IMG/VR virus record: IMGVR_UViG_3300027759_003166
DNA length: 64,000 bases
Reading direction: 5' to 3' (one strand)
From: a virus
Taxonomy: Duplodnaviria > Caudoviricetes
Within the stretch, counting starts at the first letter, position 1, and each line of letters starts with the position of its first letter. Below are positions 33,864 through 61,161 of the stretch, in pieces. Both the position numbers and the translations under genes were made by a program. The notes under the pieces are model-generated. The model made no database searches and had not been told where the DNA came from. It saw nothing but the letters and a program-made list of their open reading frames with translations.

Positions 33864-33865
33864 GC

Positions 33866-35031: not shown

Positions 35032-35060
35032 ATTATACATACATTGTTACACTTTGTCAA
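35032..35060 (-). promoter_or_regulatory. Perfect sigma70 consensus promoter
   Basis: Minus strand TTGACA-N17-TATAAT upstream of the MoxR-like gene. Confidence 0.85.
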
Positions 35061-35720: not shown

Positions 35721-35762
35721 TATACATACGCTCCAAATGTGCGTATATATTTACCTGTTTTT

Positions 35763-41153: not shown

Positions 41154-41170
41154 TTAAGTTTTTCCTATTA

Positions 41171-41554
41171 TTAGGGTTGATTAACAAATGTAAGTGTGGC
41201 ACCATTCTCGCCATCTTCACTTACGTCAATGATGGTCTTACGACCAGGGTACCTTGCGGTAATTGTCGTGTTAAGTTCACGAGCAATCATTTCACAAGAT
41301 TTGTGGTTGAGTTCAAGAATGCCATCATTGTAGCACTTCTCAAGCCAACGCTTAAACTGGATAAATTCAATATCGCGGTCATCTTGGAAGACCTCAATAG
41401 AAACTTTAAAATGGAAAATGTGTCGATGTGGAGTTCCAAGGAAACTTACATCATATTCGTCGCCTGTGGCCAACTTAGGATCAGTTGCGGCTGCGGGATA
41501 GCAGTGAATACCTTCTTTTTGAAATTTCACCCAGATAACTGATAAATCGTTCAT
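41171..41554 (-). CDS. dpdL: QueD-paralog T-fold protein (DpdL-like)
   Basis: GIH...LGTPHRHIF...SCEMIA...VSEDGENGA aligns by eye with QueD, but has LxxxHRHxF in place of CxxxHGH. As I recall it, that is the signature described for the phage CDG decarboxylase DpdL; an HMM check is needed. Confidence 0.6.
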   Translation of the reverse strand: MNDLSVIWVKFQKEGIHCYPAAATDPKLATGDEYDVSFLGTPHRHIFHFKVSIEVFQDDRDIEFIQFKRWLEKCYNDGILELNHKSCEMIARELNTTITARYPGRKTIIDVSEDGENGATLTFVNQP

Positions 41555-42057
41555 TTAATTACTTCGTCTTTGGTATATTGAGACCAGTCTGTAAAGGTCT
41601 CACGGGTTAATAAATTGTGTAGGCTATGACACCACACACCGGGGTTTGTCGACTTGAAGTTGTTGTCGTCAAGTTTAATTATAGCATTATAACCTAGTTG
41701 TTGTAAATAGGGCAGTTTCACCGAAATCATTGGAATGAAATTATGATACTCAGCAAATCCAGTTTCTAACAATCCTTCTACACACTTAACATCTACGTCC
41801 AATGTACATTGATAATCTCTGTTAAGGAAATACTTGATCATATTTTCCCAGTCTACCCAACCACGAGCATTGGTGTCATAATTAGGAAAACTTTGATTAG
41901 CACCAAAGTAGATATGCTCGCAGCCGTTGAGTTTGGCAGCAATAGCATCTACATCTTGTACACCAACAACAAACAATGTTCTCTTACCGTATGCAGGAGT
42001 ATGTTCTACTTCCGTACCGTAGAAGAAGTCTGCGTTTTCGTGTCCTTCTCTTTCCAT
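41551..42057 (-). CDS. Hypothetical protein (~168 aa) inside the deazaguanine cluster
   Basis: ATG at 42057 is 1 nt after the dpdA stop; ATGA overlap with the dpdL-like gene. Confidence 0.7.
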   Translation of the reverse strand: MEREGHENADFFYGTEVEHTPAYGKRTLFVVGVQDVDAIAAKLNGCEHIYFGANQSFPNYDTNARGWVDWENMIKYFLNRDYQCTLDVDVKCVEGLLETGFAEYHNFIPMISVKLPYLQQLGYNAIIKLDDNNFKSTNPGVWCHSLHNLLTRETFTDWSQYTKDEVIK

Positions 42058-42058
42058 T

Positions 42059-43618
42059 TTATTCTCCAAGGTCGTCGCTTAATTTCTGTAATGCTGAATC
42101 ATTAGCATCTGAAAGATCAATTTCATCAGCACGAGTAACTTCTTCAACATCAAATAATCCACCAAATAGATTATCATTCTGTCCGTTAGTGGTGTTACGA
42201 GCACCTGCAATACTGATCAAGAATGCCTTAGCAGTTGGATGCTCTAACATCTCCATGGCTTCTGTTAATGTTTTGGTATTAAACAATTCTTCAACAAAAC
42301 GATCAAAGTACAATACATTACGTGGCACCCATTCACTAAACTGATCACTGGCAAGTTCTTTGGCGTTAAGTTTCTTCCATGAACGCCAGTCTGGTTTGAA
42401 TCTTGCACTTTCGATGTCAGCATAATGATTAGCACGTTGTACTGCCTCAATATGACATTGTACATTATGTGCCATATACAATGAATAAGCAAAACTATCC
42501 CAAGAAGTTTTACCTTCTTTGCCAATCTTGTTTAACATTCCTGGAGCATAATGACAAATGTCGCCCATTACAAGTCTGCGGCCGATCTCTGATTCAAAGG
42601 GGAATGGGATATCGCTTCCTGCAAGTGCTTTGTTGTCTGGGGCTTTTTCCATAACAACACTGAACTTTTTCGAAGTGTGGATTGGGTTTGTGTAAACGAG
42701 TCCGTGTGCTGTTGCGACAAACGGTGAGGCGCAGTCAAAAGATATGGTAACTTCTTCATTAATATGTTTCCTGAGTTGTCGTTGAATTGAAGTTAGATAG
42801 CAAGCCCAATCTAACTGTGCTGTACCCAAGAAGTGGATCCAGTTCTTGCCTGTGAGCATGCCTTCCTCGCGCATGATCATCAAACGCTTTAAAGTGATGT
42901 CCATCTTACTCATATTGACACCACCCATTGCCCAACCCTCTGCTGCTTTATCTCCCCATACAGCAGGGTCACTATATTCTTTAACACCTTCATACCAAGA
43001 CTGTGCGCTATGCCAATCGCTGCCTTGTAAAACATTTAACCACTTGGTCTTACCTAACCGATTCTTTAAAAAGTAATCGTTATTGAAACGAGTTTTTTGT
43101 AAACAATCAGCAGGACTTGTTAATCCGGTTCTTGCTTGATTATTCTTATCACAGGCCCAAATAGGCACATCCAACATCATTGACCAGTCAGCAGTTAATT
43201 CTAACCAAGCAATAATAGAATCACGAGTTTTGTTGGCTGCTTTACCTTCAAAGTCTTGCCAATCAAACTTTAAAATGCCTTTACCAATCTGATATCCACC
43301 TGAGTCACCTAAGATCATAGTTTTAGCATGATTACGATCGTGTATCATGACTTCTTGTACCAAACTTTTTTCTATATCTAACTGTGCATGACCGGCAGAG
43401 TATAGACCATAATTATAAGTAAAGTATCCTTGCTCTTCGTTTAAGAAGTTCATACCTTCGATACCACGATCAAATCCTTTAGGGATACGATCCTTGGGTA
43501 CAAAATCACTTAGTCGTTGTTTGGCAACGTAGGTGCTGTAGAAACTGCTGATTGCTGGCAAATAGCAGGCATAATCCCTATTCAGGGGCGATAAATCAAC
43601 TGGTGGATTACTTTTCAT
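42059..43618 (-). CDS. dpdA: DNA-guanine transglycosylase (TGT family, DpdA-like)
   Basis: ILGDSGGYQ (TGT DSGG motif), MMLDVP, VLQG, IHFLGT, ISFDCASP; probable start MKSNPP at 43618, 4 nt after the clamp stop. Confidence 0.8.
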   Translation of the reverse strand: MKSNPPVDLSPLNRDYACYLPAISSFYSTYVAKQRLSDFVPKDRIPKGFDRGIEGMNFLNEEQGYFTYNYGLYSAGHAQLDIEKSLVQEVMIHDRNHAKTMILGDSGGYQIGKGILKFDWQDFEGKAANKTRDSIIAWLELTADWSMMLDVPIWACDKNNQARTGLTSPADCLQKTRFNNDYFLKNRLGKTKWLNVLQGSDWHSAQSWYEGVKEYSDPAVWGDKAAEGWAMGGVNMSKMDITLKRLMIMREEGMLTGKNWIHFLGTAQLDWACYLTSIQRQLRKHINEEVTISFDCASPFVATAHGLVYTNPIHTSKKFSVVMEKAPDNKALAGSDIPFPFESEIGRRLVMGDICHYAPGMLNKIGKEGKTSWDSFAYSLYMAHNVQCHIEAVQRANHYADIESARFKPDWRSWKKLNAKELASDQFSEWVPRNVLYFDRFVEELFNTKTLTEAMEMLEHPTAKAFLISIAGARNTTNGQNDNLFGGLFDVEEVTRADEIDLSDANDSALQKLSDDLGE

Positions 43619-43622
43619 TTTA

Positions 43623-44357
43623 TCATGCCTGTGCTGGAATAATATATTTGTAAGTAGCAATGCCGCTATCTAAAGTGATCTGCATAGCACCTTCATCACT
43701 GAACCCAATCTTAGCATTGTTGGCATCAGCAATTTTTAAAATGCTTAATACGCTATTCACTGGCCAAGTCCATCCTTTAGTAAGATTACCAACAACGTCT
43801 GTAGCAAAAATAAATTCACCACCGTGACTGCTAACATCACCAAATGTAAACTTCAAATTACCACCATCTGTTTTGGCCAAGAAAGTTGTATGTTCTGTGT
43901 TAGCACCTGCTTGGAATTGAAAACGTTGAATAGCACTTACAGTAGGCTCAACTTCAACATGCCATTTAACACCACGGAACTTAACAGTTTTCAATTTCTC
44001 ATTGATAATGTCTTGATTCATAAAGCGATAGTCATTCTTAAAGTCGCCGTCTTTGTTTTCAAAGTGTAGACCAACTGGAATAGTTTCGCCATTACGTTCA
44101 GCGGTAACTACCTCAATTTTAGCATCGTCTTGATATTCTTTACCATCTAATAGATAGCGTAGTTTTTCAAGTTGTGGCATACCATATGTGCCAATCATGT
44201 CTGGATGCGGATTAGCAGTTTCAGCATACATGATAACGCTACGGTCATCTGCCATGGAGTCGATTAGAGTTTTTTGTTCTGTGCCTGTTACTTTAACAAT
44301 ATTTAGAAAGCCTAATTTGTTTGTATGTGCAACGATGTCTTGAAGAATAGATTTCAT
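43623..44357 (-). CDS. DNA polymerase sliding clamp (T4 gp45-like)
   Basis: 244 aa two-domain alpha/beta pattern ending ...GAMQITLDSGIATYKYIIPA; directly downstream of the B-family polymerase. Confidence 0.65.
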   Translation of the reverse strand: MKSILQDIVAHTNKLGFLNIVKVTGTEQKTLIDSMADDRSVIMYAETANPHPDMIGTYGMPQLEKLRYLLDGKEYQDDAKIEVVTAERNGETIPVGLHFENKDGDFKNDYRFMNQDIINEKLKTVKFRGVKWHVEVEPTVSAIQRFQFQAGANTEHTTFLAKTDGGNLKFTFGDVSSHGGEFIFATDVVGNLTKGWTWPVNSVLSILKIADANNAKIGFSDEGAMQITLDSGIATYKYIIPAQA

Positions 44358-47773: not shown

Positions 47774-48316
47774 TTATAAACGAGCGTCTATAATGTTCCA
47801 ATTGATAATTTTCCAATGATTATTTAGATAACCTTTTTTATCGGCTTGGTAATCCAATGACCAAGCATGTTCCCAAGCATCAATTAAAACAATAATATCT
47901 TTCTTTATAGAATGATTGGGAATTATTTTTATATCACCATTGCTTGATAGATAGCACCAGCCACTTCCTTGAATGGACATAAACGATTTGGTAAATTCTT
48001 CTTTGAAGTTATCAAAAGATTTAAAATGTTGATCAATAAACTCTTTGGATGCACCAATTGGTGTATTTTCTTCATCTGGAATCTGTAGTTGTGGAAAGTA
48101 TATACTATGTAAGTAAGCACCTGCTTCATTAAAGTCTAGATCACCTTCGCCGCTGTTATAGCGATTAACATAGGTTCTGTATAGTTTGCCATAATGATAA
48201 TCTATAGCATCTTCACTTAACACAGGTTCTAATGCATCTCGGGCATAGGATAATTTCACTTGTTCAAGTGTTTTGATCTCTTTGCCTTCTACTACATATT
48301 TTATAAAATTAAACAT
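47774..48316 (-). CDS. sod: Fe/Mn superoxide dismutase
   Basis: YARDALEP...DYHYGK, YLHSIYF, GSGW, DAWEHAW; all four metal-ligand positions present. Confidence 0.88.
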   Translation of the reverse strand: MFNFIKYVVEGKEIKTLEQVKLSYARDALEPVLSEDAIDYHYGKLYRTYVNRYNSGEGDLDFNEAGAYLHSIYFPQLQIPDEENTPIGASKEFIDQHFKSFDNFKEEFTKSFMSIQGSGWCYLSSNGDIKIIPNHSIKKDIIVLIDAWEHAWSLDYQADKKGYLNNHWKIINWNIIDARL

Positions 48317-48906
48317 TATTTCTTTTTACCTGCTTTCATATTAGCGGCCCAATGTGCTAATTGTGCTGCTCGTCCTGAATGACTTTTGGCAAACTTTCTC
48401 AAACTGCTAATACTAGCATGTTTAGGAATACCGTGCCTTGCACTATCACCTTTATCCTCGGGATGACGTCCGTCAGCAAAATTCTCTGCTACATCCTGCT
48501 GACCTTCCACAGTAAGCCTGTCTAATGCTATTGGATTTAATACAACATTCGGTTTCAAGCCTTTGGTGTTAGCATAGGCCACATACACTTGATCTGTGGG
48601 TTCTATAACAAAACTCACACAATGTTTACCGGGCCAGTCTGGTTTGCCCACACTAAACCAAATGCCTATCACAGGAATAAATGGATGTTCATCTGTGCTC
48701 AACCGACCATATTCCCGTTCGCCTGTGGCGTCACGCCGAGGTTTTAGTCCTCCACTTTTCTTAATTGCTTCTAGCCTATTGGTACAATGATAAACCCTTT
48801 GCCCCACTATGTCTTGTCCAGGAAATAGATTCGTACCAGGAACATTCTTAGGTGGTCTAACTCCCTGGTAGTTGGTAAAGTTTTCAACTAGTTCGTTGAT
48901 ACGCAT
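48316..48906 (-). CDS. Putative ADP-ribosyltransferase-fold domain fused to a basic C-terminal module
   Basis: VYHCT...IKKSGGLKP...GIWFS resembles the YHGT/I..GL.P/G.YFS ART pattern; QQDVAE precedes a K/R/H-rich tail. Confidence 0.5.
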   Translation of the reverse strand: MRINELVENFTNYQGVRPPKNVPGTNLFPGQDIVGQRVYHCTNRLEAIKKSGGLKPRRDATGEREYGRLSTDEHPFIPVIGIWFSVGKPDWPGKHCVSFVIEPTDQVYVAYANTKGLKPNVVLNPIALDRLTVEGQQDVAENFADGRHPEDKGDSARHGIPKHASISSLRKFAKSHSGRAAQLAHWAANMKAGKKK

Positions 48907-49689
48907 TTAGCAATTCCATTTACGTAATGCCAATGCCTTGCGTGTAGGTTCACCATTGGGCTTTTTCATAGGACCATCAACTCCACCCATTCTAGCACAG
49001 AATGATTTACGGCGTTTGGCGGATTTACTGCCAGCTTTTAATTTACTGGGTTTAGTGGTAACTGCCGTTTGTAGTTTGCTACCAGGGTGCTCTCTACGAT
49101 AACTAGCAACACCTTTGGCATTTAGTCCGCCAGACTTGCTTTTGCCGGCCTTACGATGCCACGCAGCAGATTCATTTAATTCATCTTCTAAAAACGTATC
49201 AGCAAACTTTTCGCATAGTGCTCTAATGTCTGAGTTGTTTGTTTCTTGTAGAGTAAATTCTCTTTCTTCGTGTTCGTCGTCACCTTGGCTTGGATCCATA
49301 TAACCGCAATATACTTTACGTATGATAGAATTATTGATTAGATCGGTACAACTATCTCCGTGCCTTTCTTGTGCAGTTTCATCACTAAATTCACTGCAAG
49401 GACTCAGCGTAGTAATAAGAATACTGCCTTCTGGAATGTCACCATATTTTCTATCATAGGCTTCCATGGCTGCTTTCTCTGCATGAACATGTAAATCGCC
49501 TTGCATATAATTCAATCCTAAAACTAAATTATTGTCAGGATCTAATACAGCAGCAGCAACCATGCCGTAACGTTCGCTATCCCTTTTCTGGCCTTCAATA
49601 ACCAGTTTGCAGAGTTTAACCAAGATACCGTCCAACTTGGTTAGATTGCGTATCTCGTAGTCAGTTTGGTCAAACTCTGTAAATCTCAT
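48907..49689 (-). CDS. Zn-dependent cytidine/dCMP-deaminase-fold protein fused to a basic C-terminal module
   Basis: HAE...TLSPC...C zinc motif, with VAAAVL and KVYCGYMDP; after ELNE a separate K/R-rich module (SAAW...RRKSFCARM...RKWNC). Confidence 0.75.
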   Translation of the reverse strand: MRFTEFDQTDYEIRNLTKLDGILVKLCKLVIEGQKRDSERYGMVAAAVLDPDNNLVLGLNYMQGDLHVHAEKAAMEAYDRKYGDIPEGSILITTLSPCSEFSDETAQERHGDSCTDLINNSIIRKVYCGYMDPSQGDDEHEEREFTLQETNNSDIRALCEKFADTFLEDELNESAAWHRKAGKSKSGGLNAKGVASYRREHPGSKLQTAVTTKPSKLKAGSKSAKRRKSFCARMGGVDGPMKKPNGEPTRKALALRKWNC

Positions 49690-49738
49690 TTCTTTTTCAC
49701 CTTAGGCTGTCTTGCTTTATATAAGGCCGCTGTGGCCA

Positions 49739-50725
49739 TTACTTTTTTTTTTCTGGGGTCTTATTTTTAAATTGGTGATACTTATTTGGATCAGCATTTT
49801 GGAAGTTATCAACCCAAGCATCTAAATCCATAGTAGGTTCCAATTGTCTCTCTACCATTTGCTGTAGTGATTCAAAGTATGGATCACCTTCCGCCACACC
49901 TTGCTTGCGACTTTGGATAACTGTTCCACTTTGTTTTAAATATTTTATTACTTGTTTTCTAATTTGATTTGGATCAGTTAAACCGCCATCTAAACAATTA
50001 TCAACTATTTCAATAGCCAATTGTTGATCCATATCATCAATTAAATTAAATTCTTTTATAAAATGATTTCCCATCTTAATTGCTTCTGGACTATACATTC
50101 CTTCATGATCACCCTCCTCCATACCTTGCTCTTCTTTTCTTTTACCAAATGTAGCATGTACAAGTTGATCTAATTTTGCATGGAAATTAGTTTCAGCATC
50201 TTTGCTAAGTCCTGCATCACCTTCCGCCACACCTTGCTGCTCACCGTTGATACTTTGTAGCACACTATTCAAGTAGTCTGCGGCTTTAGTAATTTTACTT
50301 TGTTGCCAAGCATCAAGTCCTTCTTGTTCGCTATAACGTTGTACCATGTCTAATAATGATTGAGCATTTTTAGCAATGCTCATTAGTTCGCTACTGGCCA
50401 TTTGTATTTCGTGATCAGGATGATCTCTGTCTTCCATAAAAGGTTTTTTATGTTTTTCTTTGCGTGGAATAGTTTTGCTTTTATCTTTGTGAGCACCGGC
50501 ACCTGCCGTTTTGGCATTCTTAGCAACAAAGTTTCTTGGAGTACTTGCTGGAACAGTTTTCTTATCTGCTTCTTGTGCAATTAGATTATTACCACGTTTG
50601 CGTGTACCGCCTATGGGCATACTAACACTGGCTACACTACCTGAACTGGTGCCGCCTCCACTAGCATTTTCTAATACATAACGAGTTACCTCGCCTTGTG
50701 ATAATTTTTTAAATTCGTTGTTCAT
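49739..50725 (-). CDS. Modular protein with QGVAEG junctions; probably extends to 49686 across a frameshift in an A10 tract
   Basis: ATG at 50725 overlaps the upstream TGA; contains QGVAEGD twice and QGMEEGD once. Confidence 0.7.
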   Translation of the reverse strand: MNNEFKKLSQGEVTRYVLENASGGGTSSGSVASVSMPIGGTRKRGNNLIAQEADKKTVPASTPRNFVAKNAKTAGAGAHKDKSKTIPRKEKHKKPFMEDRDHPDHEIQMASSELMSIAKNAQSLLDMVQRYSEQEGLDAWQQSKITKAADYLNSVLQSINGEQQGVAEGDAGLSKDAETNFHAKLDQLVHATFGKRKEEQGMEEGDHEGMYSPEAIKMGNHFIKEFNLIDDMDQQLAIEIVDNCLDGGLTDPNQIRKQVIKYLKQSGTVIQSRKQGVAEGDPYFESLQQMVERQLEPTMDLDAWVDNFQNADPNKYHQFKNKTPEKKK

Positions 50726-51063
50726 TTTGTTTTCATCCAATTTGATACAGGGCTTACTGTATGTGTTCCTTTAGGTTCAAGACTACCTCGTTGAACAATT
50801 ACTTTATTTTTAAAACCCATCTTCTTAGCAGCATTGACAATCATTTCTTCATCGACATCTGAATATGCCCATGCTGCCGGAACATCTTTAGCAGGTCCTT
50901 CTGTAGGTGCATCATGATCTGGCATACCTGCAGACATTATACCTAATCTATAAAAATCGTAGTATTGATCAGCTCCGTGAAATTGTCGCCCGTGTGGTAG
51001 TGTACGTTGTGCCTGTTTATGCAGACCTTTCTTACGTTCTATGATAAACTCAGTTGCTCTCAT
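50722..51063 (-). CDS. Hypothetical protein with MRATEFIIE leader
   Basis: 113 aa; paralog of the upstream ORF. Confidence 0.7.
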   Translation of the reverse strand: MRATEFIIERKKGLHKQAQRTLPHGRQFHGADQYYDFYRLGIMSAGMPDHDAPTEGPAKDVPAAWAYSDVDEEMIVNAAKKMGFKNKVIVQRGSLEPKGTHTVSPVSNWMKTK

Positions 51064-51430
51064 TTTTCATCCAATTTGCTACAGGACTAACGATATTAGT
51101 ATCATCGGGTTCTTTGCTCTTGCTACGCTTGGTTAATTCTTTACTATCTGTAGGAATAGTTGCCATTGCTTGTAATACCATCATATGTTCAATGTCTGTG
51201 TAAGGAAATGCTACATTGTATTTTTCCACAAAACTTGAACTATCCATATCTACTGCTTTTTTATTTGATCCATCTGCCATAGCAGTTGCCATCCAAATTC
51301 TATTCAGATGATAGGTGCGATCATACCCGCCAACATCTCGCATCCTGGTAGCACCTTGGTTGGCATTGTCCATATGATGGTGCATTTTGCCGCCCGGTGT
51401 TGCCTCTGAAATGAATTCTTTTGCTCTCAT
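51050..51430 (-). CDS. Hypothetical protein with MRAKEFISE leader
   Basis: ATG at 51430 is 4 nt after the previous stop (track start 51514 overlaps the previous gene); paralog of 50722-51063. Confidence 0.7.
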   Translation of the reverse strand: MRAKEFISEATPGGKMHHHMDNANQGATRMRDVGGYDRTYHLNRIWMATAMADGSNKKAVDMDSSSFVEKYNVAFPYTDIEHMMVLQAMATIPTDSKELTKRSKSKEPDDTNIVSPVANWMKNESN

Positions 51431-51434
51431 AGTA

Positions 51435-54400
51435 TTATTTATTACTTTTGGATATTGCTTCATTAACAATAATCTTATTGATGAGAGCATCCATAATGTT
51501 TTCAATATCTTCACTTACTGGAATACAAATGTCTTTACCGTTTTTAGTACCAGCATAACGTTTACCTTTCCAGCAGGCCTTACCGTCAACCCCTTTGATC
51601 TTTTCTTCAATGGGTTTGTCATTGTGTTGAACGCTATCACCGCCAACTAAATCTCCAGCCTGAGCAGGTTTGTTTTTCTTAGGTCCAGTATTCTTCCATT
51701 GTCCAGCAGGTCCAAGTTTGTTCTTTTTACTACCTGCAAAGTTACTTGCTGGCATCATCTTTTCGGCAACTTTCTCATCCTTCTTAGGTTCTGGTTTAGG
51801 GATACTACTTGGAGTACGAGCAAGACTTGCGTCGCTCTTAGCACGTTGTTTCTGTTCAGCATTCCATAAACGTTGAGCAGCACTCATACGAGCCTCCGCC
51901 ACACCTTGCTTTGGTTCTGGTAAGCGTAACTTTTTACGCATCTCAGGGCTTGTATCTTTTAAACGTTTCTGTTGTTCTTTATCTTGTTTTGCTTTTGCTT
52001 CTGGACGATTTCTACGCTGTTCTTCACGATCACCGCTTGGTGTACGATTATCCATCTCTGCCAAGCCTTCCGCCACACCTTCGGCCATTTTAACGTGATG
52101 TCTATCCAACTCTTGTTTCAATGCTGCTAATTTGTTTGGAGCACGAGCAATAGCATTACGGATCTCCCCGGCAACGTTCTTTGGAATCTTACTTAATACA
52201 TCATTAACAATCTGATCAACCTGTGCATTCTGTTGTCCTACTGCTGTACTTTTAGGTGGCTTAATAGCTGGCTCATCCTGCTCATCACCTGATGCTTCGA
52301 GATCCATTAAGTATCTTTCGTATTCTGCTTTATTCTGCATCCAACGACGAGCATTTCTTGTCAGTTGTGGAGCATTGATTTGTTCGCCTAACTTGGCCAA
52401 TATTGGAGGTAGATTATTAGAGATGTTGCCAAATGATCTCTTCATTTCTAATTCGCCGTCTGCTTCTTCTCCACGTAAGAAGTCACGTAAATCTACGGTT
52501 CTACGAGTATTGTATTTGCATAGGTCGTGTAGTTCATTGTGTAGTCTACCTATGTACATATTTTGCACCCAACGGCCACCAACCCCTGCTGCTACCATTC
52601 TAAAGCCACGACCTAGTTCGCCATGATTCTCCATATACTTCTTAGCCTGGAATTTCATTGTTTCATAGACATTGGTAATAGGTTCTCCGATGTCGTTGAT
52701 AATGGATCGTAGTGTGCTGTCAATACTGGTACCTTCTACTAGGGCATTTAATATTCTTTGTTCTGCTATAGGAGCAGGTTCTGGTTGTGGCACAGGTGCC
52801 TTTGGTTGTTGTATTCCCATACCTTCCCTTGTTAAATCCATTAGGTGTTTAATCCAATTAACACCTAATTTTTGTACATCAAATCCTTGGCTCCAAACGG
52901 CTAATTGCTGTTGTTCAGTGGCGTTAGGATCTTTTAATATATTTCGTAGTTTAGTAAAACTCATACCAGTACCACGTGGTGTTATTTCTAAACTTACTTT
53001 AACATGTTCATAGCCTGGAAATTTATTAACACCCTTCATTAATGCCTGTGGCATAGTAAGACCTGCTTGATCTTCACCAACCATAATAATAACATTATCA
53101 TAGCGCGGCGGCTTGCCTGGTAGTGGATTAATTAATTCGTGCTTGATCTTTTGTAGTAATGATCCACCTGCTTCATTCACGGTACTAATATTCTTAGCAT
53201 ATTCTGGATATAGTTTGTGCCAAGTTTGTACTTTAACTGCCGGTGGTATTGGATCATCTTTACCCTGTGCATTGCCAATAAACAAATATGGATCCCCACC
53301 TACTGCTGCGGCTTTCTTTAATGTGTAATCAAATAATTGCTCATGACCAATATGTCCAACAAAACTACCAATAGCAACTACCGCTGTCTTAGCATCTCCT
53401 CTTGGACGTTCTGTTCTTGCATTTACCTTAGCAGCATTCTTAGCAGTGATAACATCACGTTGTTCCTGACTGGTAACTTTAATAGGACCTAGGCGACTAT
53501 TGATAACAATACCTTCGTAGTCTTTGCCCAACATATCTTTGCCAATGATGTTAGGGTCATTGATAATTGCTTTCTCTAATGCTGCGGCCACAGGTTCCAA
53601 TGCTGCCTTAACCTGACGTCGGGCTTCTAACTTGTTGCTGGCTAACATGGCTTTTAGTTCATCGATGTTCTCAACAGGTGGAACTAATGCTGTAACATCT
53701 AATGCTTCATTTTGTGTTAGACTATTATCAATAAACATAACACTGCCTGATTGTCCTACGCTGGTTAGCTCTTGAACAATTTTGTTTGAGTTAGGTAAAT
53801 CATCACCTGTGGTAGCATCTGTGATACGGAATGGAACCAATGCAAGTTTAACACCTGCTGGTAATTTGTCGTAGTGTATACCTACAAACTTTAGTTTACC
53901 TTCTGGAGTTTCTGTGGCAAATGGTAGATACAATACTTCACAGGTAACTTGTTTATTGACTAAAAATCCAGGTCCTAACTTGCTATCAACTAACTTAACA
54001 GCGTTCATCATTTCCGTAAATAGTTCATCAAATAGTTGAGCACGACCTAATACTTCTGGATCAGTAGTACCTTTCTTTTGATGATATGCTACAAAGCCTG
54101 GTTCGTATCTAGGTTCTGTTCTACTGGTGCCCATGAAAGGCTTACCTTCAGAATTCTTACCAAATCTGCCACCAAATCCGTCTACTTTGACGTTTAAAGG
54201 AATGTTTTGCAGTTTAAAATTGCCGTTTCCGTCGTGAATTTCGTCTAATAAATCTAACAAGTCAGCAGGCTTAAGATCGTGTAAGTGTGGCATACCTTTT
54301 CGGAATTGTGCCTTTACTTGTGCTTCTTCTTTTAATGGTTTAACAGCCTTGTTTTGAAATGCAGCAGCATAAGTAGTAGCCATTTCAATTGCTTGTTTTC

Positions 54401-55544
54401 TTAAACTAGCAGCATTGGCTAACTTCATATTTTCCAACATCCAATCTATGGCAGCAAATTTAATATCGCGGTCTCTTGCCGGATCATTTTTGGTGATCAT
54501 TTGACTACCTGGTTCAAAACATATACTAAAGAAACGTTGTGCTATTTCTTCTTTCTTTTGTTCGTTGAGATATTTGGCAATCAGTTGTACTGTACCGACA
54601 AAACTATTTTTAAGTTCTTGATCATTGCCTTTGGGTTTTCTACCAAAGAAGATTTCAAATTGTTGACCAAGATTTTGTATGTATTGTCTTGCACTAGGTT
54701 CAAGCAATTGCATTACAGGAATGCCATCCTTTTCCATAGGTTGCCCAGTAGCAGGATCCATGTAAGGAACATATTTCTGACTTACACCACCACCGCTTGG
54801 ACCGCTAACAGCAAAACTATAATCACTATCAGTTACAGGTGCATCAGATATCTTTGTACTTTTCTTTAATACACGAGCAACATATTTGGTACTGGCCTGA
54901 GAATAGGGTAATGCACGATCTAAAAATTTGTGGAATACACCTTTAATGTTTTGAGATATGTCATCCCAAGAACTGCTATGACTATATGATTGCCACTCTG
55001 TGGGTAATCCTGTTTCGGCTTCATGTGCTCCGTATTCAAAGTCAATTTGAATCTTAACAGGTAAATCTTTTAATTTGATCTCCCATAGGCTAACCCATTG
55101 ACTATTACCTGGAGTAAATCCCAACAACATGGCGTTGCTGAACATTTTACCTGTGTTATTTTGTAAGAATTGTCTAATTGTTTCAGCATGTTTGTCAGTT
55201 GCTTGTGTATCAATATCGCCTACCTTGGGTTTGACTCGGACAAATTCTTCATCAGATATTTTCTTATCCATGAATTGTAAAGTACTGCCGCTTAGAAACT
55301 TTTGAGTCTCTACAGAATTCTCATGCCAAAGCGGTTCTTTGAATTGCTGAGTAAATGCATCATTAATTGAATGTAGTGTTTGACTTACTACATCTTGTAC
55401 ATAACTACGGTCATGAACATGTAGATCTAATTCTTGTGCTTGATGATCACCTGGTACCCCTTGCCACCCTGGACTTTGGCTAGATACATTGCCACCTTCG
55501 GATAATGCTAGTTTAGGATTTCTAAATAGTTCAGATAAGTTCAC
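51435..55544 (-). CDS. 1369-aa multidomain protein: Pol-beta-type nucleotidyltransferase + ATP-dependent ligase-like domain + HIGH nucleotidyltransferase + C-terminal modules
   Basis: SGS...GDID...QIDFE; KVDG, CEVLY, EGIVI, IKV (ligase motifs I, III, IV, V); GSFVGHIGHEQL...IIMVGEDQ; GTG start. Confidence 0.75.
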   Translation of the reverse strand: MNLSELFRNPKLALSEGGNVSSQSPGWQGVPGDHQAQELDLHVHDRSYVQDVVSQTLHSINDAFTQQFKEPLWHENSVETQKFLSGSTLQFMDKKISDEEFVRVKPKVGDIDTQATDKHAETIRQFLQNNTGKMFSNAMLLGFTPGNSQWVSLWEIKLKDLPVKIQIDFEYGAHEAETGLPTEWQSYSHSSSWDDISQNIKGVFHKFLDRALPYSQASTKYVARVLKKSTKISDAPVTDSDYSFAVSGPSGGGVSQKYVPYMDPATGQPMEKDGIPVMQLLEPSARQYIQNLGQQFEIFFGRKPKGNDQELKNSFVGTVQLIAKYLNEQKKEEIAQRFFSICFEPGSQMITKNDPARDRDIKFAAIDWMLENMKLANAASLRKQAIEMATTYAAAFQNKAVKPLKEEAQVKAQFRKGMPHLHDLKPADLLDLLDEIHDGNGNFKLQNIPLNVKVDGFGGRFGKNSEGKPFMGTSRTEPRYEPGFVAYHQKKGTTDPEVLGRAQLFDELFTEMMNAVKLVDSKLGPGFLVNKQVTCEVLYLPFATETPEGKLKFVGIHYDKLPAGVKLALVPFRITDATTGDDLPNSNKIVQELTSVGQSGSVMFIDNSLTQNEALDVTALVPPVENIDELKAMLASNKLEARRQVKAALEPVAAALEKAIINDPNIIGKDMLGKDYEGIVINSRLGPIKVTSQEQRDVITAKNAAKVNARTERPRGDAKTAVVAIGSFVGHIGHEQLFDYTLKKAAAVGGDPYLFIGNAQGKDDPIPPAVKVQTWHKLYPEYAKNISTVNEAGGSLLQKIKHELINPLPGKPPRYDNVIIMVGEDQAGLTMPQALMKGVNKFPGYEHVKVSLEITPRGTGMSFTKLRNILKDPNATEQQQLAVWSQGFDVQKLGVNWIKHLMDLTREGMGIQQPKAPVPQPEPAPIAEQRILNALVEGTSIDSTLRSIINDIGEPITNVYETMKFQAKKYMENHGELGRGFRMVAAGVGGRWVQNMYIGRLHNELHDLCKYNTRRTVDLRDFLRGEEADGELEMKRSFGNISNNLPPILAKLGEQINAPQLTRNARRWMQNKAEYERYLMDLEASGDEQDEPAIKPPKSTAVGQQNAQVDQIVNDVLSKIPKNVAGEIRNAIARAPNKLAALKQELDRHHVKMAEGVAEGLAEMDNRTPSGDREEQRRNRPEAKAKQDKEQQKRLKDTSPEMRKKLRLPEPKQGVAEARMSAAQRLWNAEQKQRAKSDASLARTPSSIPKPEPKKDEKVAEKMMPASNFAGSKKNKLGPAGQWKNTGPKKNKPAQAGDLVGGDSVQHNDKPIEEKIKGVDGKACWKGKRYAGTKNGKDICIPVSEDIENIMDALINKIIVNEAISKSNK

Positions 55545-55548
55545 AATA

Positions 55549-55908
55549 TTATCCTAACTTATATTTGTCTTTTTTAATATCTTCACGATAGTGATCATGA
55601 AGTCTATGGCACATATCATCTCTCATTTCTTTTGAAAACTCAGTGCCTAACTTGCCTTTTAATTCGTTATCGTGATAGTATTCTTTACAACCTTTAATTA
55701 CCATAGGCATATACATTTCTAATACTTGCTCAGGTGTACATTCATCTAAACTCTTTAGTTTACGAGCAATAGGATAGAAGTAATCTTTGTGTAGTTTATC
55801 GTGATCAATGATGTACCAAAATAATTCGTCGGCACGTTTATCATCGTCGGTGTCTTTGCCACGTTGGCTTATTTGTATAGGCTGATTAAAGAATTCTGTG
55901 AGTTTCAT
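55549..55908 (-). CDS. Hypothetical protein with MKLTEFF leader
   Basis: 119 aa; first gene after the TAAATA motif. Confidence 0.7.
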   Translation of the reverse strand: MKLTEFFNQPIQISQRGKDTDDDKRADELFWYIIDHDKLHKDYFYPIARKLKSLDECTPEQVLEMYMPMVIKGCKEYYHDNELKGKLGTEFSKEMRDDMCHRLHDHYREDIKKDKYKLG

Positions 55909-55915
55909 AATATGG

Positions 55916-55925
55916 TATTTATTTA
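55916..55925 (-). promoter_or_regulatory. Putative late promoter (two overlapping TAAATA)
   Basis: Minus strand TAAATAAATA ending 7 nt before the ATG at 55908. Confidence 0.55.
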
Positions 55926-56195
55926 AGTTTGTTCTTCCAGATAATAACTACACCCTGGTATACCGTGTTGGCTATATCTCAAATTCCTCTCCATTGGATA
56001 AGTTCTGCACCCATCAGGCCTTGTTTCGTATATTTTGCATCGGCGAAATTCTTCATCAAAATGCTCGCACCATCGTGTAGTATACTCAACATTACCTGGT
56101 TTATAAACGCGAACTTTACAACATCCTGTATTACATCCGCCAAATGGATCACAAAAACCTTTGACCACAGGATTAATCCAAATAATCTCATTCAT
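55923..56195 (-). CDS. YkgJ-like cysteine-cluster (CxxCxxCC-type) protein
   Basis: CDPFGGCNTGCC...CEHF...CKIYETRPDGCRTYP...C; ATG at 56195 in a TAATG overlap with the fibre stop. Confidence 0.7.
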   Translation of the reverse strand: MNEIIWINPVVKGFCDPFGGCNTGCCKVRVYKPGNVEYTTRWCEHFDEEFRRCKIYETRPDGCRTYPMERNLRYSQHGIPGCSYYLEEQT

Positions 56196-59100
56196 TATAC
56201 CCACGCAAAGTATGTTAAATTAATTGCCGCAGCGTCAACAGCACCACCCCAGTTATGGAATGTTACACTTAATGTATTGGTACTACTTACCCATGCTGCT
56301 GCAACAAATACCCCTGCTGGTAATGTAGTACCAGGTGTAACTACTACTTTATGATTTGTGGTTAATCCTGTTACTGTAACAGTTTGTGTTCCGATAGACT
56401 GTTTTCCAAGGCTTGCAGGATCAATACTAACTTGTCCTGCTTTAATATTAGTTATACCTAAAAGTGAAACTGCTTGTGCCATCAATGTAGCAGTGTTAAG
56501 GCTAACTGTTACAGCACCTGTGGATGTTGTAACAAATATGCCAGTACCTGTGCTTATGCTGGTAACACCATTTATACCATAACTTCCTTGAATACCCTGA
56601 ACACCCTGACTACCGGTTATACCTTGAATACCCTGCGTACCTTGGTTACCAGTATTGCCTGTATTACCAGTGTTGCCTACATTACCTTGAATACCTTGAA
56701 TACCCTGCGTACCTTGGTTACCAGTATTGCCTGTATTACCAGTGTTGCCTGTATTACCTTGTATACCTTGAGTGCCCTGCGATCCGGTAATACCTTGTGC
56801 TCCGGTAATACCTTGTGCTCCGGTAATACCTTGTGCTCCGGTAATACCTTGTGCTCCGGTAATACCCTGCGTACCTTGACTGCCAGTATTGCCCTGATTT
56901 CCTTGGTTACCTTGGTTGCCTTGAATACCTTGACTACCAGCAGTACCTTGTGTACCCTGTATACCTTGTGGTCCTTGCGGTACAGCAGCACTGATTACAA
57001 TTGCACCTGTAGATGTTGATATGTAAATTCCGGATCCAGTAGTAATACTAGTAACACCGGTATTGCTAATTGTTGTACTTCCGCCTAAACTTGGACTTGC
57101 TACACTAACACCAATGCCTGCTCCAGCAGTAAATGTTATTTGACTAAATGCTAGTTTATTATTGGCAATACTGCCAGCCAACATATTGTTAGAGACTGTG
57201 CCAGTATCTGTGGTATAAACACCATTGGTCACTGTTGTTGCTAATGCTACTGCACCTGAAATCTTACTACCTGCCAACGAACCAATCCATGTAGGATTTG
57301 TATAAGTTTGATTAGCATAAACACCGTTGGTTACACTACCAGCATTACCAGATACAGTGCCAGTAACATTGCCAACCACATCACCAGTCAATGGTCCAAA
57401 GAAACCAGCACTAGTTACCGTATTAGCAACATTTAATCCATTAGCAGTAATAGTTGCTTCAATGTTTCCTGCCAGTGTTCCATTGGTGAAAAACACTATT
57501 CTATCTTCAGTAGTACCTATGGCTAGATTACCATCTTGTACAAATAGATATCCATCGTTGGCACCATTTACCTTCCAAGTGGATGTATTATAGTTACTAC
57601 CATTAATACCCATATCGATATAATAACTACCATCGTCGCCTATGTCATTGACTGCTACAAAATCAGATGATGATTGTGTTCCAGCGTTATGGTTAATGTT
57701 TACTACTTGCCCATAACTATTTAAATCATTATCAACTTGTAAAAGTGCGCCAGGGTAGAGATTATCTTCATTTAAAATACCAAACTTACCACCAGCAATA
57801 ACTCTTAAATTAGTTAATGTACTATAGGTAGCAATTAATTGTTGTGTGTTAATACCACTGCCATCAAAATCCCAATATTGTTTGGATCTATTCCATAGTA
57901 TAGAAGCAGCAAGATTAGTGCCTGTTCCTAATTGTATACCACCGCCATCAAGTTGTGATATATTAGATGCAGTTGTTCCTAATATGAGTATTGACCCTTC
58001 GACTGTATTTGGAATTAAATTAGTAAGATCACCAGTATAATTTAACGTACCATTGATATTAACATCGTTGAATGTAACATTACTTGAGGGAGCAAGGTCT
58101 TGTGGCAAACTTAATGTGATACTACCATTAGTTGATGCAGTTGCTCCGTTAACATTGATTTGATTTGCCGTACCTGCTAAGGATAAAACACCAGTACTAT
58201 CTAAACTGATAGAGTTGGCTAATCCACCACCGCTTAGACCGACACCGGCTATGACCTCAACTACGGCTACAGTGTCTAAATTATTAATCAAACTAACATC
58301 TACTGTACCAGTAAATGCTGTAGTTTGTCTTGAACGATCATAGAATGTAATACCACCATTAACATTACCATCAAAGTCTATACCTCGATCGTTGAATATA
58401 GTACTGGTTGTGATAACATTAGAACCATTGGGGGTAGTTTGTATTACTACCTGTGTGCCAGCAGTAGTATTGGTAAAGTCTTGTGTAGCCTCAACAGTAA
58501 TACGACCAATGCTTTGCACATATTGATTATCACCGTATCCTTGTGTAGAGAATCTAAGTAGGATGTCTTTGTTTTTAACGGCAGTAGGTGCTTGGACCGT
58601 TCCTCTTGCTGCACGACCTGCGATAACAGGGTAAGCACCAGTACCAAATGCATCAACACTAATCCGAGTTGCAATTCCATTCTGTCCTGTAATCTGCAAC
58701 ATTGTACCAGTAAAGTTGCGAGGTTGTTGGATACCCGCGGCATTACCAATAATGCTAAGTGCTGACTCTGATATAGAAATATTTTGTTTTGGAAATACGG
58801 TAACTAATCCCTCACGTGTAATTTCAAATACTTTATAACCATTAACATCATTCATCTTCACAGGGCGATTAAAATTAACATATCCTGTAGCAGTTGTACT
58901 ACCAACAATAATATCTCTGGCGTTATCAGCAATTATAATTTGGTTATCCTGAAATGTAAATTCACCGACCTTTAGCCCAGCAGATCCTATAATAGTAAGT
59001 ATATCATTTCTTGCGGTAATACCTACATCGTTGTCTTTAATTTCATCTTTAATAAAGATTGATCCACCGCCTAACCATAGATGTCTCCAACGATTAAGCA

Positions 59101-59989
59101 CCGATCCTAAACTTTGAACATTATTTTCTAAGGGTATAAGATCCTTGCCTAGAATAATATTACCATCTTGTCCAGGATTTAAGAACAGACTAGTATCATT
59201 GGGTGTATGTATATTAAATGACAATGTCTCTTTAGGACGAGCAATGGTCACTGTTTGTCCCGCTATTGGAAAAGTGGTACCACTGATATCACTAAAATCA
59301 CTCGATGTTATAACTATCGAGGTCCAAGTTCCTGTACCTGAGAATATAATAGGTGATGGTACAGGATATCCTGCTCCGGATATTATATCTCCTGCTAGTA
59401 ATTCAGCAGGTGGTGTAATTTCAAATTCTGTAACAGCATATGGGGCATTTATGATAGATTCATTTCCATATGTACCAATTGCTAGTTGATCAGTTGAAGT
59501 GGTGCTATAATTTATAACACCGTTTATTAATGCATCTGCTAAATTAACTACTACACTAGCGGTGGTATCGTTGAATATTGTACCTACTGGTAATGTAATT
59601 GTACCGTCTTCGGTAATTACCAATGTAGCAGTACCTGATGAGATACGATCTGTTTGTACATCAGTTACTACAGGATATGGTGGTAATGTTGCTGTAGTTA
59701 AATATCCAACATTGTTTTCAAAGTCACCAACATTGGTAGGTACTGTGGGATATGTGGGTAATGTACCAACTGTTAAATATCCAACATTGTTTTCAAATTC
59801 ACCTACATTGGTAGGAATAACTGGATAAGGAGGTAATGTATTAGTAGTTAAGTATCCTGCATTAATAATGCTATCAAAATTTGTGTAAACTTCATCAAAA
59901 TTATCATTGGTCTTTACCAATGCTGAACGTAGGCTTTCTCCATCACCTGTATATTCCCCTGATCCTACATTTATTGTTTGTTTTGCCAT
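56195..59989 (-). CDS. Long tail-fibre-like structural protein with collagen-like region
   Basis: N-terminal INVGSGEYTGDGESLRSALVKTNDNF matches the T4 gp9/gp10-type attachment motif; T/G/N-rich beta repeats; long G-x-Q/G-N-T collagen-like tract near the C-terminus. Confidence 0.8.
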   Translation of the reverse strand: MAKQTINVGSGEYTGDGESLRSALVKTNDNFDEVYTNFDSIINAGYLTTNTLPPYPVIPTNVGEFENNVGYLTVGTLPTYPTVPTNVGDFENNVGYLTTATLPPYPVVTDVQTDRISSGTATLVITEDGTITLPVGTIFNDTTASVVVNLADALINGVINYSTTSTDQLAIGTYGNESIINAPYAVTEFEITPPAELLAGDIISGAGYPVPSPIIFSGTGTWTSIVITSSDFSDISGTTFPIAGQTVTIARPKETLSFNIHTPNDTSLFLNPGQDGNIILGKDLIPLENNVQSLGSVLNRWRHLWLGGGSIFIKDEIKDNDVGITARNDILTIIGSAGLKVGEFTFQDNQIIIADNARDIIVGSTTATGYVNFNRPVKMNDVNGYKVFEITREGLVTVFPKQNISISESALSIIGNAAGIQQPRNFTGTMLQITGQNGIATRISVDAFGTGAYPVIAGRAARGTVQAPTAVKNKDILLRFSTQGYGDNQYVQSIGRITVEATQDFTNTTAGTQVVIQTTPNGSNVITTSTIFNDRGIDFDGNVNGGITFYDRSRQTTAFTGTVDVSLINNLDTVAVVEVIAGVGLSGGGLANSISLDSTGVLSLAGTANQINVNGATASTNGSITLSLPQDLAPSSNVTFNDVNINGTLNYTGDLTNLIPNTVEGSILILGTTASNISQLDGGGIQLGTGTNLAASILWNRSKQYWDFDGSGINTQQLIATYSTLTNLRVIAGGKFGILNEDNLYPGALLQVDNDLNSYGQVVNINHNAGTQSSSDFVAVNDIGDDGSYYIDMGINGSNYNTSTWKVNGANDGYLFVQDGNLAIGTTEDRIVFFTNGTLAGNIEATITANGLNVANTVTSAGFFGPLTGDVVGNVTGTVSGNAGSVTNGVYANQTYTNPTWIGSLAGSKISGAVALATTVTNGVYTTDTGTVSNNMLAGSIANNKLAFSQITFTAGAGIGVSVASPSLGGSTTISNTGVTSITTGSGIYISTSTGAIVISAAVPQGPQGIQGTQGTAGSQGIQGNQGNQGNQGNTGSQGTQGITGAQGITGAQGITGAQGITGAQGITGSQGTQGIQGNTGNTGNTGNTGNQGTQGIQGIQGNVGNTGNTGNTGNQGTQGIQGITGSQGVQGIQGSYGINGVTSISTGTGIFVTTSTGAVTVSLNTATLMAQAVSLLGITNIKAGQVSIDPASLGKQSIGTQTVTVTGLTTNHKVVVTPGTTLPAGVFVAAAWVSSTNTLSVTFHNWGGAVDAAAINLTYFAWV
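56619..56750 (-). repeat. 60-bp exact direct repeat with 72-bp period in the collagen region
   Basis: 56619-56678 is identical to 56691-56750. Confidence 0.85.
56783..56866 (-). repeat. 18-bp exact tandem repeat, four copies plus 12 bp (GAQGIT)
   Basis: Unit tccggtaataccttgtgc on the + strand. Confidence 0.95.
59668..59857 (-). repeat. 75-bp (25-aa) imperfect tandem repeat, ~2.5 copies
   Basis: GYLTxxTLPxYPxxPTNVGxFENNV units. Confidence 0.85.
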
Positions 59990-59999
59990 AGTGATTCCA

Positions 60000-60452
60000 T
60001 TACCTGTTTATGCTTATACCATTCATTACACCCTGTGTAAATTCACTGATACGCCCCCTAATCCAAACAAAATTTCCAGTGAAATTATAAGATTTGTTGG
60101 CAGTAGTTTCTGTGGTATATCGAGTAGTGTCAACTCCTGCCACAGACACTGCGCCAGTACTATCTACAACATATCTGTTTCCGGGTGAGGTAAGTGTGAT
60201 TGTAGCCCAATCATCGTCGACAGGCGCAGATGCTAGTGTACCTTGTATCTCAATGGTACCTATGAAATCTGCTACGCTCCAAAATACAGTGTGTAACCCA
60301 TCGCTGCTGCCAAAGTAACCATCACCTTTGATGCGTTCACTTTGATAAATCAGCGCGGTAGTAGCAGTATTTGGGTAATCTACCTGTACAGAATTTGTAG
60401 TAGTATTACCGTTGGTGATTTTGAAAACAAGGTTTTGGCTTAATGCTGGCAT
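60000..60452 (-). CDS. Probable structural protein (150 aa, beta-rich)
   Basis: TAAATA motif at 60460-60465; directly upstream of the fibre gene. Confidence 0.6.
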   Translation of the reverse strand: MPALSQNLVFKITNGNTTTNSVQVDYPNTATTALIYQSERIKGDGYFGSSDGLHTVFWSVADFIGTIEIQGTLASAPVDDDWATITLTSPGNRYVVDSTGAVSVAGVDTTRYTTETTANKSYNFTGNFVWIRGRISEFTQGVMNGISINR

Positions 60453-60462
60453 AATAAAGTAT

Positions 60463-61161
60463 TTATGCCGTCATTAAGTTCTCCCGTAGTATGAATTCTT
60501 CTACTCGTTTGACATTTCCGCTGGCAAACAGCCCAATCATAGTCAAAGTTTTCTCATCTTTGACATACATAAACGGATTGTATAACCATCTATGTTTAGA
60601 TTCTAACCACTTTTTAGAATTTTTACTAATGTTTATAGTATCAGGAAACTTAGCAGCCCATTCGGCAAATGCCAATCTACCCTCCATGGACCATGATTCT
60701 TTAAGATATACTTTATACTTGTATCCATCCTTGGGCAATATATCACGCAGAATCTTCTTATGCCCATTATCTAGCATATAATTAAGTTCTTCTTCTGTAG
60801 TAGGGCCAGATATTCTTTCTACCCAAGGTGCAACTGCTTTGTAGATATTCTCCAACAATACAGGATCTTTACAAAAGATATTATAATGCTTACCTTCTAC
60901 ACGAGTTTGTAGCTGATCTTTCAATGCTAGAAACGGCTCTAACCCTGTGGTAAATGCTAATAACTGGGCTTTGTTTTCTTTGCTCAATTTATCATTACTT
61001 TGCCAACGCCATAGAGCAGGAGCCGGTTCACCAAGACAGAAATCTTTAGTTTGATCAACACCGGCCCAGCGTAATCTACTGGCCCCACTGATATAGCATT
61101 CTATCTTGTAGGGCCATTTGTTATAGAATAACTTACTGGATGGTAGCTTCTGTATCTGCAT
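60463..61161 (-). CDS. Hypothetical protein (232 aa)
   Basis: Long ORF overlapping the end of the clpA-like gene. Confidence 0.7.
   Translation of the reverse strand: MQIQKLPSSKLFYNKWPYKIECYISGASRLRWAGVDQTKDFCLGEPAPALWRWQSNDKLSKENKAQLLAFTTGLEPFLALKDQLQTRVEGKHYNIFCKDPVLLENIYKAVAPWVERISGPTTEEELNYMLDNGHKKILRDILPKDGYKYKVYLKESWSMEGRLAFAEWAAKFPDTINISKNSKKWLESKHRWLYNPFMYVKDEKTLTMIGLFASGNVKRVEEFILRENLMTA

Follow-up and report, generated by a model that had tools for sequence, protein, structure and literature searches.

T4-type phages are known both to load their heads with leader-targeted cargo that is processed by a protease and to recombine at short conserved motifs. The capsid-targeting sequence (CTS) of T4 is MKTYQEFIAE (PMC8442874), and its residues 8 and 10 govern processing (PMC9026906); the genes of the T4 internal-protein cargo vary widely and change fast, with nothing but the leader in common (PMC3012670, PMC9026906). 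The prohead proteases of T4, phiKZ, and SPN3US cleave C-terminal to a Glu after a short motif (PMC5694885). With respect to recombination, the T4-type machinery works on less than 50 bp of homology (PMC2839356), and PeSL cassettes mediate modular shuffling between genes of T4-type phages, a system that its authors likened to integrons and for which short homology is enough (PMC2839356, PMC4122927). In the gp38 adhesin, with its glycine-rich motifs, and in the motifs of T-even tail fibers, exchanges occur within or near the motifs (PMC3157838). Here, we analyzed a 64,000 nucleotide (nt) stretch of the IMG/VR virus record IMGVR_UViG_3300027759_003166 (hereafter the window), in which a short linker, typically reading QGVAEG, recurs inside genes of the minus strand. 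This linker is conserved at the DNA level, is strictly tied to the reading frame, coincides with breakpoints between relatives, and bounds modules that behave as cassettes.

Within the window, the 23-mer AGCAAGGTGTGGCGGAAGGTGAT is found exactly at 49883-49905 and 50216-50238 (-), and a copy with three mismatches (20/23 identical) lies at 50108-50130 (-), while the number of matches to the 23-mer expected in dinucleotide shuffles is 0. The 13-mer core AAGGTGTGGCGGA is exact at four positions (49890, 50223, 51895, and 52069), against 0.62 matches expected even allowing two mismatches. This gives five linker copies, four with the exact core and one degenerate, all of them in frame and distributed over two genes. 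The copies read QGVAEG, QGMEEG, and QGVAEG in the open reading frame (ORF) at 49739-50725 (-), which encodes a 328 amino acid protein, and EGVAEG and QGVAEA in the ORF at 51435-55544 (-), which encodes a 1369 amino acid protein. The distances between copies, 225 and 108 nt, are both divisible by 3. An earlier note on this DNA, made from its letters alone, had described the exact pair and the third copy, two further copies in the second gene, and their common frame and spacing, all of which were reproduced in our analysis.

Each copy lies at a module border. In the 328 amino acid protein, linker copy 2 (50219-50236 (-), QGVAEG) closes a conserved N-terminal module of 168 amino acids. The degenerate copy (50111-50128 (-), QGMEEG), in which 15 of 18 nt are canonical, retains a hydrophobic residue at P3 and the Glu at P1, and a relative with about 86% identity in the shared modules (L001) has QGVAE at this place. 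Linker copy 1 (49886-49903 (-), CAA GGT GTG GCG GAA GGT, QGVAEG) joins a helical module of 75 amino acids to the conserved C-terminal module (DPYFESL...KTPEKKK). In the 1369 amino acid protein, the EGVAEG copy (52065-52082 (-)) is the breakpoint at which the conserved body gives way to the variable tail, and the QGVAEA copy (51891-51908 (-)) is located in the C-terminal tail. Identity between the copies of the window spans just 16-26 nt and their flanks are unrelated, which indicates that no local duplication carried the flanks along.

Beyond the window, the exact 20-mer CAAGGTGTGGCGGAAGGTGA is present in 75 IMG/VR contigs, always in frame as QGVAEG(D/E) and with both flanks unrelated, and the 17-20 nt form is present in at least 75 IMG/VR contigs, where every copy encodes (Q/E/K)GVAE(G/A). 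In the loci that we fetched, the linker has 354 distinct contexts, which are spread over 177 distinct ORFs; a single ORF can have as many as 10 copies. A codon-degenerate scan showed that low-GC contigs use the same codons at nearly all QGVAEG sites; the sites of high-GC contigs, most of them dispersed synonymous variants and many within short frames, appear to be chance matches. Codons were tallied in the 245 copies that had been selected by no search pattern. GGT accounts for 94%, GTG for 86%, GCG for 87%, and GAA for 89% of the respective codons in these copies, and 170 of the 245 contain the 12-mer GGTGTGGCGGAA without mismatch. In the long ORFs of the window, by comparison, GTG makes up 7.2% of Val codons, GCG 3.4% of Ala codons, and GGT and GGA 44 and 33% of Gly codons, and on this background the probability of CAA GGT GTG GCG GAA given QGVAE is 7e-4 per copy. 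These frequencies bear out the argument of the earlier note that selection on the protein alone does not explain the GTG-GCG pair, and the random synonymous codons that it had named beforehand as evidence to the contrary were not found in relatives, where the same codons dominate.

Codon identity at matching residues points in the same direction, as it reaches 82-88% in the motif, including pairs of copies without other homology, compared with 69-74% in homologous flanking modules and 42-50% in unrelated flanks. The N-terminal leaders of the linker-bearing genes served as internal control: they are conserved as proteins, and use ordinary codons (59% identity, with Ala encoded by GCA, GCC, or GCT). 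Exact copies also occur in genomes whose DNA polymerase is just 65-78% identical to that of the window, and exact copies at 65% polymerase identity are not explained by recent common descent. The conservation of the linker DNA thus goes beyond what protein selection needs. That two copies in one gene have 23 nt in common could suggest an ordinary cause, i.e., one local duplication of recent date or a peptide motif that is simply conserved as protein. We give this explanation almost no chance, because beyond 16-26 nt the flanks are unrelated, the contexts number in the hundreds and are unrelated, codon usage departs sharply from the background, and leaders that are equally conserved use ordinary codons. 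Contexts, codon usage, and codon identity together refute both forms of it, and a single duplication that includes its flanks, also raised in the earlier note, did not take place.

The rarity of GTG and GCG in this genome could alternatively reflect a signal in the mRNA, in which these codons, together with the Shine-Dalgarno-like AAGGTG/AGGTGA, pause ribosomes at domain boundaries and recombination is a side effect. Two AGGTG elements of the core could indeed pair with the 3' end of 16S rRNA, and the sites do lie at domain boundaries. We regard this as very improbable, since GGA, which is more Shine-Dalgarno-like and accounts for a third of Gly codons in the background, is almost unused in favor of GGT, the common codons are as fixed as the rare ones, and no start codon follows consistently downstream. 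Moreover, pausing by internal Shine-Dalgarno-like sequences is disputed. An internal ribosome-binding site was likewise rejected, as the start codon after the motif is not consistent.

The linker is bound to its reading frame. The 11-nt core has 287 copies in distinct contexts, and every one of them (287/287) lies inside the longest ORF and in the GVAE frame; among degenerate copies (12-15 of 17 nt identical) 233 are in frame, compared with 9 in the other two frames combined. This strict placement argues against a coding-independent DNA signal, which the 287 in-frame copies rule out. Folding of the linker site gave no predicted structure, with an energy no better than that of shuffles (z from -0.13 to +0.85), and the core of 16-23 nt is not palindromic and has no hairpin. 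A hairpin or attC-like site was rejected on these grounds.

Comparison with relatives showed that the modules on either side of the linker are exchanged. Among clusters of downstream flanks with at least two members, 44 of 49 sit behind at least two different upstream clusters, and 46 of 49 upstream clusters pair with at least two downstream clusters, so that module order is not fixed among relatives. As an example, the module that follows QGVAEA in the window (RMSAAQRLW...) follows three different upstream modules in other contigs. Cassettes common to otherwise different ORFs are often 97-99% identical, and in 21 of 34 testable pairs such a cassette stops no more than 45 nt from the next linker copy. 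Synteny with the closest relative (G001) covers the whole gene cluster, and the mosaic breaks of the 328 amino acid protein and the first break of the 1369 amino acid protein fall at linker copies. The match of the 328 amino acid protein is limited to residues 1-169 and 281-328, with linkers at residues 164-169 and 275-280, and homology of the gene restarts directly after linker copy 1; the 1369 amino acid protein is 89% identical up to the EGVAEG copy and different from there on. In the comparison with L003, nucleotide identity to the window is 91% upstream and 29% downstream of a break at the end of GCGGAAGG, in linker copy 2.

Breaks at the same places are found in metagenomic assemblies. 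Contigs of four lake metagenomes part from the window at 49887, 49903, 49906, 50219, 50237, and 52078-52082, which are the edges of linkers, and the loose contig ends at 52078-52082 are present in three runs. In two runs from different studies, a variant joins position 52063 to 51066 and lacks about 1 kb (51067-52062) that holds the tail modules of the large ORF and the MRAKEF gene. The joint of this variant, left by a deletion or a replacement, is at the 3' edge of the EGVAEG linker, 3 nt ahead of the start codon of the MRATEF gene, and the large ORF stops two codons past the linker (...EGVAEGLK, then stop). That linker copies mark exchange breakpoints between relatives is thus well supported, as is the gain, loss, and swapping of modules proposed in the earlier note, and our confidence in DNA conservation and shuffling is high.

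At the DNA level, the 16-23 nt of near-perfect identity could serve as a homology patch for the general recombination of the phage. A crossover between any two copies, in the same genome or between co-infecting relatives, would then yield chimeras that are in frame and can be processed. Each exchange would copy the linker anew, and cassettes with a canonical linker would stay transferable, which would hold the rare GTG-GCG codons fixed. Our confidence in this route of recombination is moderate, and we consider ordinary phage recombination, acting on short homology, likelier than a dedicated recombinase. Conservation of all synonymous positions, common codons included (GGT, 94% vs. 44%), in phages with just 65% polymerase identity is, however, stronger than occasional homologous recombination easily explains, and cassettes with a site at both ends move as units. 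Both facts would fit a phage-encoded enzyme, either nuclease or recombinase and akin to those of homing elements or integrons, that reads a core of 16-20 nt and actively moves the cassettes; homing endonucleases are abundant in T4-type phages, and the window has an HNH-annotated gene at 32544-33806. We nevertheless judge such an enzyme to be quite unlikely. The ORFs scanned with Pfam or PHROGs, which were those at 1-30470 and 47774-61161 and ten of the larger ORFs of 30467-44357 (small ORFs being covered in part), included no integrase or recombinase, and the scanned neighbors offer only the distant HNH-annotated gene and an exonuclease, and no candidate enzyme beside the cluster. In addition, the site has neither palindrome nor predicted hairpin, and a pure DNA site would need neither the strict frame nor the protease-site-like variation of degenerate copies. 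The linker would also be recognized by a whole dedicated exchange system, built on a sequence-specific nuclease, a recombinase, or self-homing cassettes, that carries in-frame protein modules from one phage genome to another; such a protein-level counterpart of the integron, tied to capsid delivery, is improbable. The HNH-annotated gene itself encodes a 420 amino acid protein (32544-33806 (-)) that matches an HNH-endonuclease PHROG with an E value of 3e-108; it is located 16 kb away from the linkers, and we found nothing that ties it to the repeat.

Our analysis therefore upholds part of the overall reading in the earlier note, namely module exchange and DNA conservation, and not its integron-like system, which lacks support given that short-homology phage recombination suffices for the pattern, that the site is short and structureless, that the modules are in frame, and that the scanned neighbors include no integrase or recombinase. 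As in integrons (IntI, attI/attC), the units have the same site at their borders and are gained, lost, and rearranged; unlike in integrons, no IntI tyrosine recombinase was found adjacent among the scanned ORFs, there is no attC-like hairpin, and the cassettes are in-frame peptide modules instead of promoterless genes. The linker resembles PeSL in that crossovers take place at short conserved sequences on either side of variable units. PeSL cassettes, however, are intergenic, about 100 bp long, comprise a promoter (sigma70-like) and a stem-loop terminator, and move whole genes, whereas the linker has 16-23 nt, is coding, strictly in frame, and structureless, and moves modules inside genes. In gp38, too, in-frame conserved motifs part variable segments, but there the glycine-rich motifs belong to a single gene family and build the structural core of a single folded domain, whereas the linkers are predicted to be disordered, join unrelated autonomous modules, and are common to many unrelated genes.

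The phages that carry the linker are uncultured freshwater relatives of T4 that form a clade of giant phages with genomes of about 350 kb. The window encodes T4-type baseplate and tail-fiber genes, a 5261 amino acid ORF, and a family B DNA polymerase, by which its nearest cultured relatives are Phosso, Atu_ph07, SCTP-2, XaC1, and CBB (350-490 kb; 42-51% identity). The polymerase is 91% identical to that of G001 (221 kb), 78% to that of G005 (355 kb), which CheckV rated complete, and 65% to that of G004 (349 kb). Contigs of 55-65 kb were rated 16-19% complete, which also places the genomes at about 350 kb. The region of the window is found in lake and freshwater metagenomes of more than 10 studies. 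A megablast search of positions 48000-56000 and a tblastn search of the 328 amino acid protein, both against cultured phages, returned no match, and no site coding for GVAEG with any codons was found in Phosso, Atu_ph07, SCTP-2, XaC1, or CBB. Among 185,579 bacterial and archaeal genomes, the 20-mer has six matches, all in DNA of 60-71% GC, as single copies and in non-coding-looking frames, for which reasons we took them as chance and as no clue to the host. With respect to head genes, a Peptidase_S77 (gp21-type) prohead protease is encoded in 6 of 10 linker-bearing contigs of at least 120 kb (G001, G002, G004, G005, G014, and G015), and a Gp23-type capsid protein in 4 of the 5 large linker-bearing contigs searched for it.

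At the protein level, (Q/E/K)-G-V-A-E↓G (the arrow marks a predicted cut or joint) would be a flexible linker that fits the hydrophobic-x-Glu site of the Peptidase_S77 prohead protease. In the capsid proteins of four clade members, the predicted maturation site is L-x-E and precedes the conserved mature N-terminus by about 10 residues. In degenerate linker copies, the Glu is kept in 91% and a hydrophobic residue (V/M/L/I) two before the Glu in 94%, and these are the most constrained positions; the Gln, the Ala, and the residue after the Glu are free to vary. CTS-like or family leaders, counted as M-x-x-x-(E/D)-(F/L/I)-(F/L/I)-x-E or as MNNEFKK...YVLE↓NAS, are present on 39 of 122 linker-bearing ORFs, compared with 35 of 765 other ORFs, and the window ORFs that start with MRATEFIIE, MRAKEFISE, MRINELVE, and MNLSELF...ALSE are CTS-like by sequence resemblance. 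An AlphaFold2 model of the 328 amino acid protein (mean predicted local distance difference test score, pLDDT, of 60) places the three linkers in segments with pLDDT below 50 (residues 163-179, 188-208, and 270-280) and predicts helical modules between them with pLDDT 73-90. With up to 10 sites per ORF, autonomous modules that recur independently of one another, and a repeated site in low-confidence linkers, the ORFs have the makeup of a polyprotein. Taken together, the most economical reading is that the linker is probably also cut by the head protease, and the protease-site part of the earlier note is plausible in that it fits several independent features of the sequence.

It should be noted that the leader of the 328 amino acid protein (50591-50725 (-), residues 1-45; ...TRYVLE↓NASGGGTSSGSVASVS) resembles the junction between propeptide and mature protein in the major capsid protein (...TRKYLKE↓NASAGSTSAGNIATLNRV; L213-L216). 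Local alignments of the MNNEFKK leader with the capsid maturation junction have z scores of 5-10 for most pairs (3.3-9.7 overall) relative to shuffles, and the cargo protein seems to copy the maturation site of the capsid protein.

The low-confidence, unstructured segment at each copy would equally fit a flexible hinge of multidomain proteins, packaged or not, that is never cleaved; DNA-repeat shuffling would then be real and proteolysis would not occur. The Val at P3, which is not the classical T4 preference, and the linker-bearing ORFs without recognizable leader speak for such a hinge. A hinge has, however, no need for an invariant Glu with a hydrophobic residue two before it, the leaders resemble the CTS of T4 and the capsid maturation site, and the clade encodes a Glu-specific S77 protease, so that we consider this explanation unlikely.

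Compared with the internal proteins IPI-III and Alt of T4, which are encoded by hyperplastic loci and cut by gp21, the linker genes have a short leader ending in [FLI]-x-E (MRATEFIIE and MRAKEFISE, as in MKTYQEFIAE of T4) and belong to a clade with a Glu-specific S77 prohead protease. The T4 proteins are single, small, and cut once, whereas the linker-bearing ORFs have up to 10 internal predicted sites each, which would release strings of modules; furthermore, the internal site is conserved as DNA here and the leaders are not. Viral polyproteins and the precursors of ribosomally synthesized and post-translationally modified peptides with several cores, such as the cyanobactin precursor PatE, also yield several products per ORF by means of a repeated protease recognition sequence, and in cyanobactin precursors the recognition sequences are conserved and the cores vary. 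The layout is the same as that of the linker ORFs, although proteases and biology differ, and the comparison is an analogy only.

We therefore favor as the probable, though by no means certain, explanation that the in-frame linker builds proteins of exchangeable modules, that these are head cargo cut by a gp21-like protease, and that the linker is kept through short-homology recombination. CTS-like leaders would take the linker proteins into the prohead, where they would be cut into separate modules and retained as cargo. Several points weigh against this explanation. For homologous recombination, a stretch of 16-23 nt is short, and by itself such recombination may be insufficient to fix rare codons across such distant lineages, and another factor may select directly on the nucleotide sequence. 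Large contigs have 2-6 copies each, and copies in one ORF are barely more alike than copies in different ORFs, with flanks no more alike. Accordingly, local gene conversion is not the main force and the standard is held at the population level; strong homogenization within genes was rejected, the flanks being no more alike within an ORF and the core only slightly so. With regard to cleavage and packaging, in which we have moderate confidence, the linker has Val at P3, where T4 examples and the capsid site of the clade itself have Leu or Ile, and CTS-like leaders were counted, by a crude start-codon rule, on about one third of the linker-bearing ORFs. Finally, the window is without head genes, so that the protease is known from relatives alone, and the linker is in no cultured phage.

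Literature searches for QGVAEG and GVAEG returned nothing relevant, and we found no published description of the linker. The combination of one coding linker in many unrelated genes, rare codons that are kept, and cassette behavior appears to be undescribed. If our explanation is correct, these phages would have something near to exon shuffling without introns, in which a joint of 6 residues and about 18 nt keeps exchanges in frame and the product cleavable inside the capsid. This would explain how injected proteins, likely factors for host takeover or anti-defense, diversify in giant phages, and it would add a concrete case in which synonymous sites seem to be under selection for evolvability. 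Linker and leader would also form a plug-and-play format for loading foreign proteins into capsids. The linker is, in addition, a simple tag for hundreds of uncharacterized candidate cargo modules in metagenomes.

With regard to the genes of the cluster, the 328 amino acid mosaic protein (49739-50725 (-)) belongs to the MNNEFKK family, with a conserved leader, variable interior cassettes, and a conserved C-terminal module, and has a weak match to DUF7230. In a close relative of this protein (L002:8001-9302), another cassette replaces the 75 amino acid module of the window, and this cassette opens with a stretch resembling a twin-arginine signal (SRRGFLKGAGAMAAG); Pfam TAT_signal matched 1 of the 62 linker-bearing ORFs scanned, a set that did not contain L002. 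The 1369 amino acid multidomain protein (51435-55544 (-)) has a GTG start, a CTS-like N-terminus (MNLSELF...ALSE↓GGN), a cytidylyltransferase-like region, and a tail of linker-bounded modules. Between both genes, an ORF of 126 amino acids (51050-51430 (-), MRAKEFISE) has a candidate T4-type capsid-targeting leader, as does an ORF of 113 amino acids (50722-51063 (-), MRATEFIIE), and from their sequences both look like internal head proteins. The 3' ends of these two small leader ORFs form a 49-nt direct repeat (50730-50778 and 51064-51112, 76% identical) that encodes VSPV[SA]NWMK and overlaps with the beginning of the gene that follows. This repeat may serve as another junction sequence or as an element of translational coupling. 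Three further genes of the syntenic cluster (47774-49689 (-)) encode a dCMP deaminase fused to DUF6321 (MRFTEF...), a 196 amino acid ORF (MRINELVE...), and an Fe/Mn superoxide dismutase, and no canonical linker was found in them. The deaminase and the 196 amino acid ORF have CTS-like leaders, and the dismutase starts with MFNFIKYVVE↓G. DUF6321 alone matches 508 records of cultured cyanophages and pelagiphages, podoviruses included.

A Pfam scan of the 62 linker-bearing ORFs left most modules without a family; DUF6321 was detected in six ORFs, and GNAT, DUF5872, DUF5661, ParB_N, and DUF7230 in one or two each. Small Cys-rich cassettes recur in many combinations (L008, L009, L013, L014, L016, L052, and L116), among them WSxKYKxSINCSHPKGFSQKAHCAG, CPDCGMC, KRCMQCGMxNCxCP, and CWKGxxxxGTKxxxGxxVxNCVP, and had no family match. 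The 5261 amino acid protein of the window is encoded by a single ORF (7430-23215 (+)) located between the baseplate wedge genes and a tail-fiber gene. Joints that lack GVAE often read ...N-E↓S... (KNESVDPYFESL), as in L001, L002, L003, L011, L013, and others, and this joint may represent another kind of junction or cleavage site; in the window, LNESAAWHRK (49150-49170) stands ahead of DUF6321.

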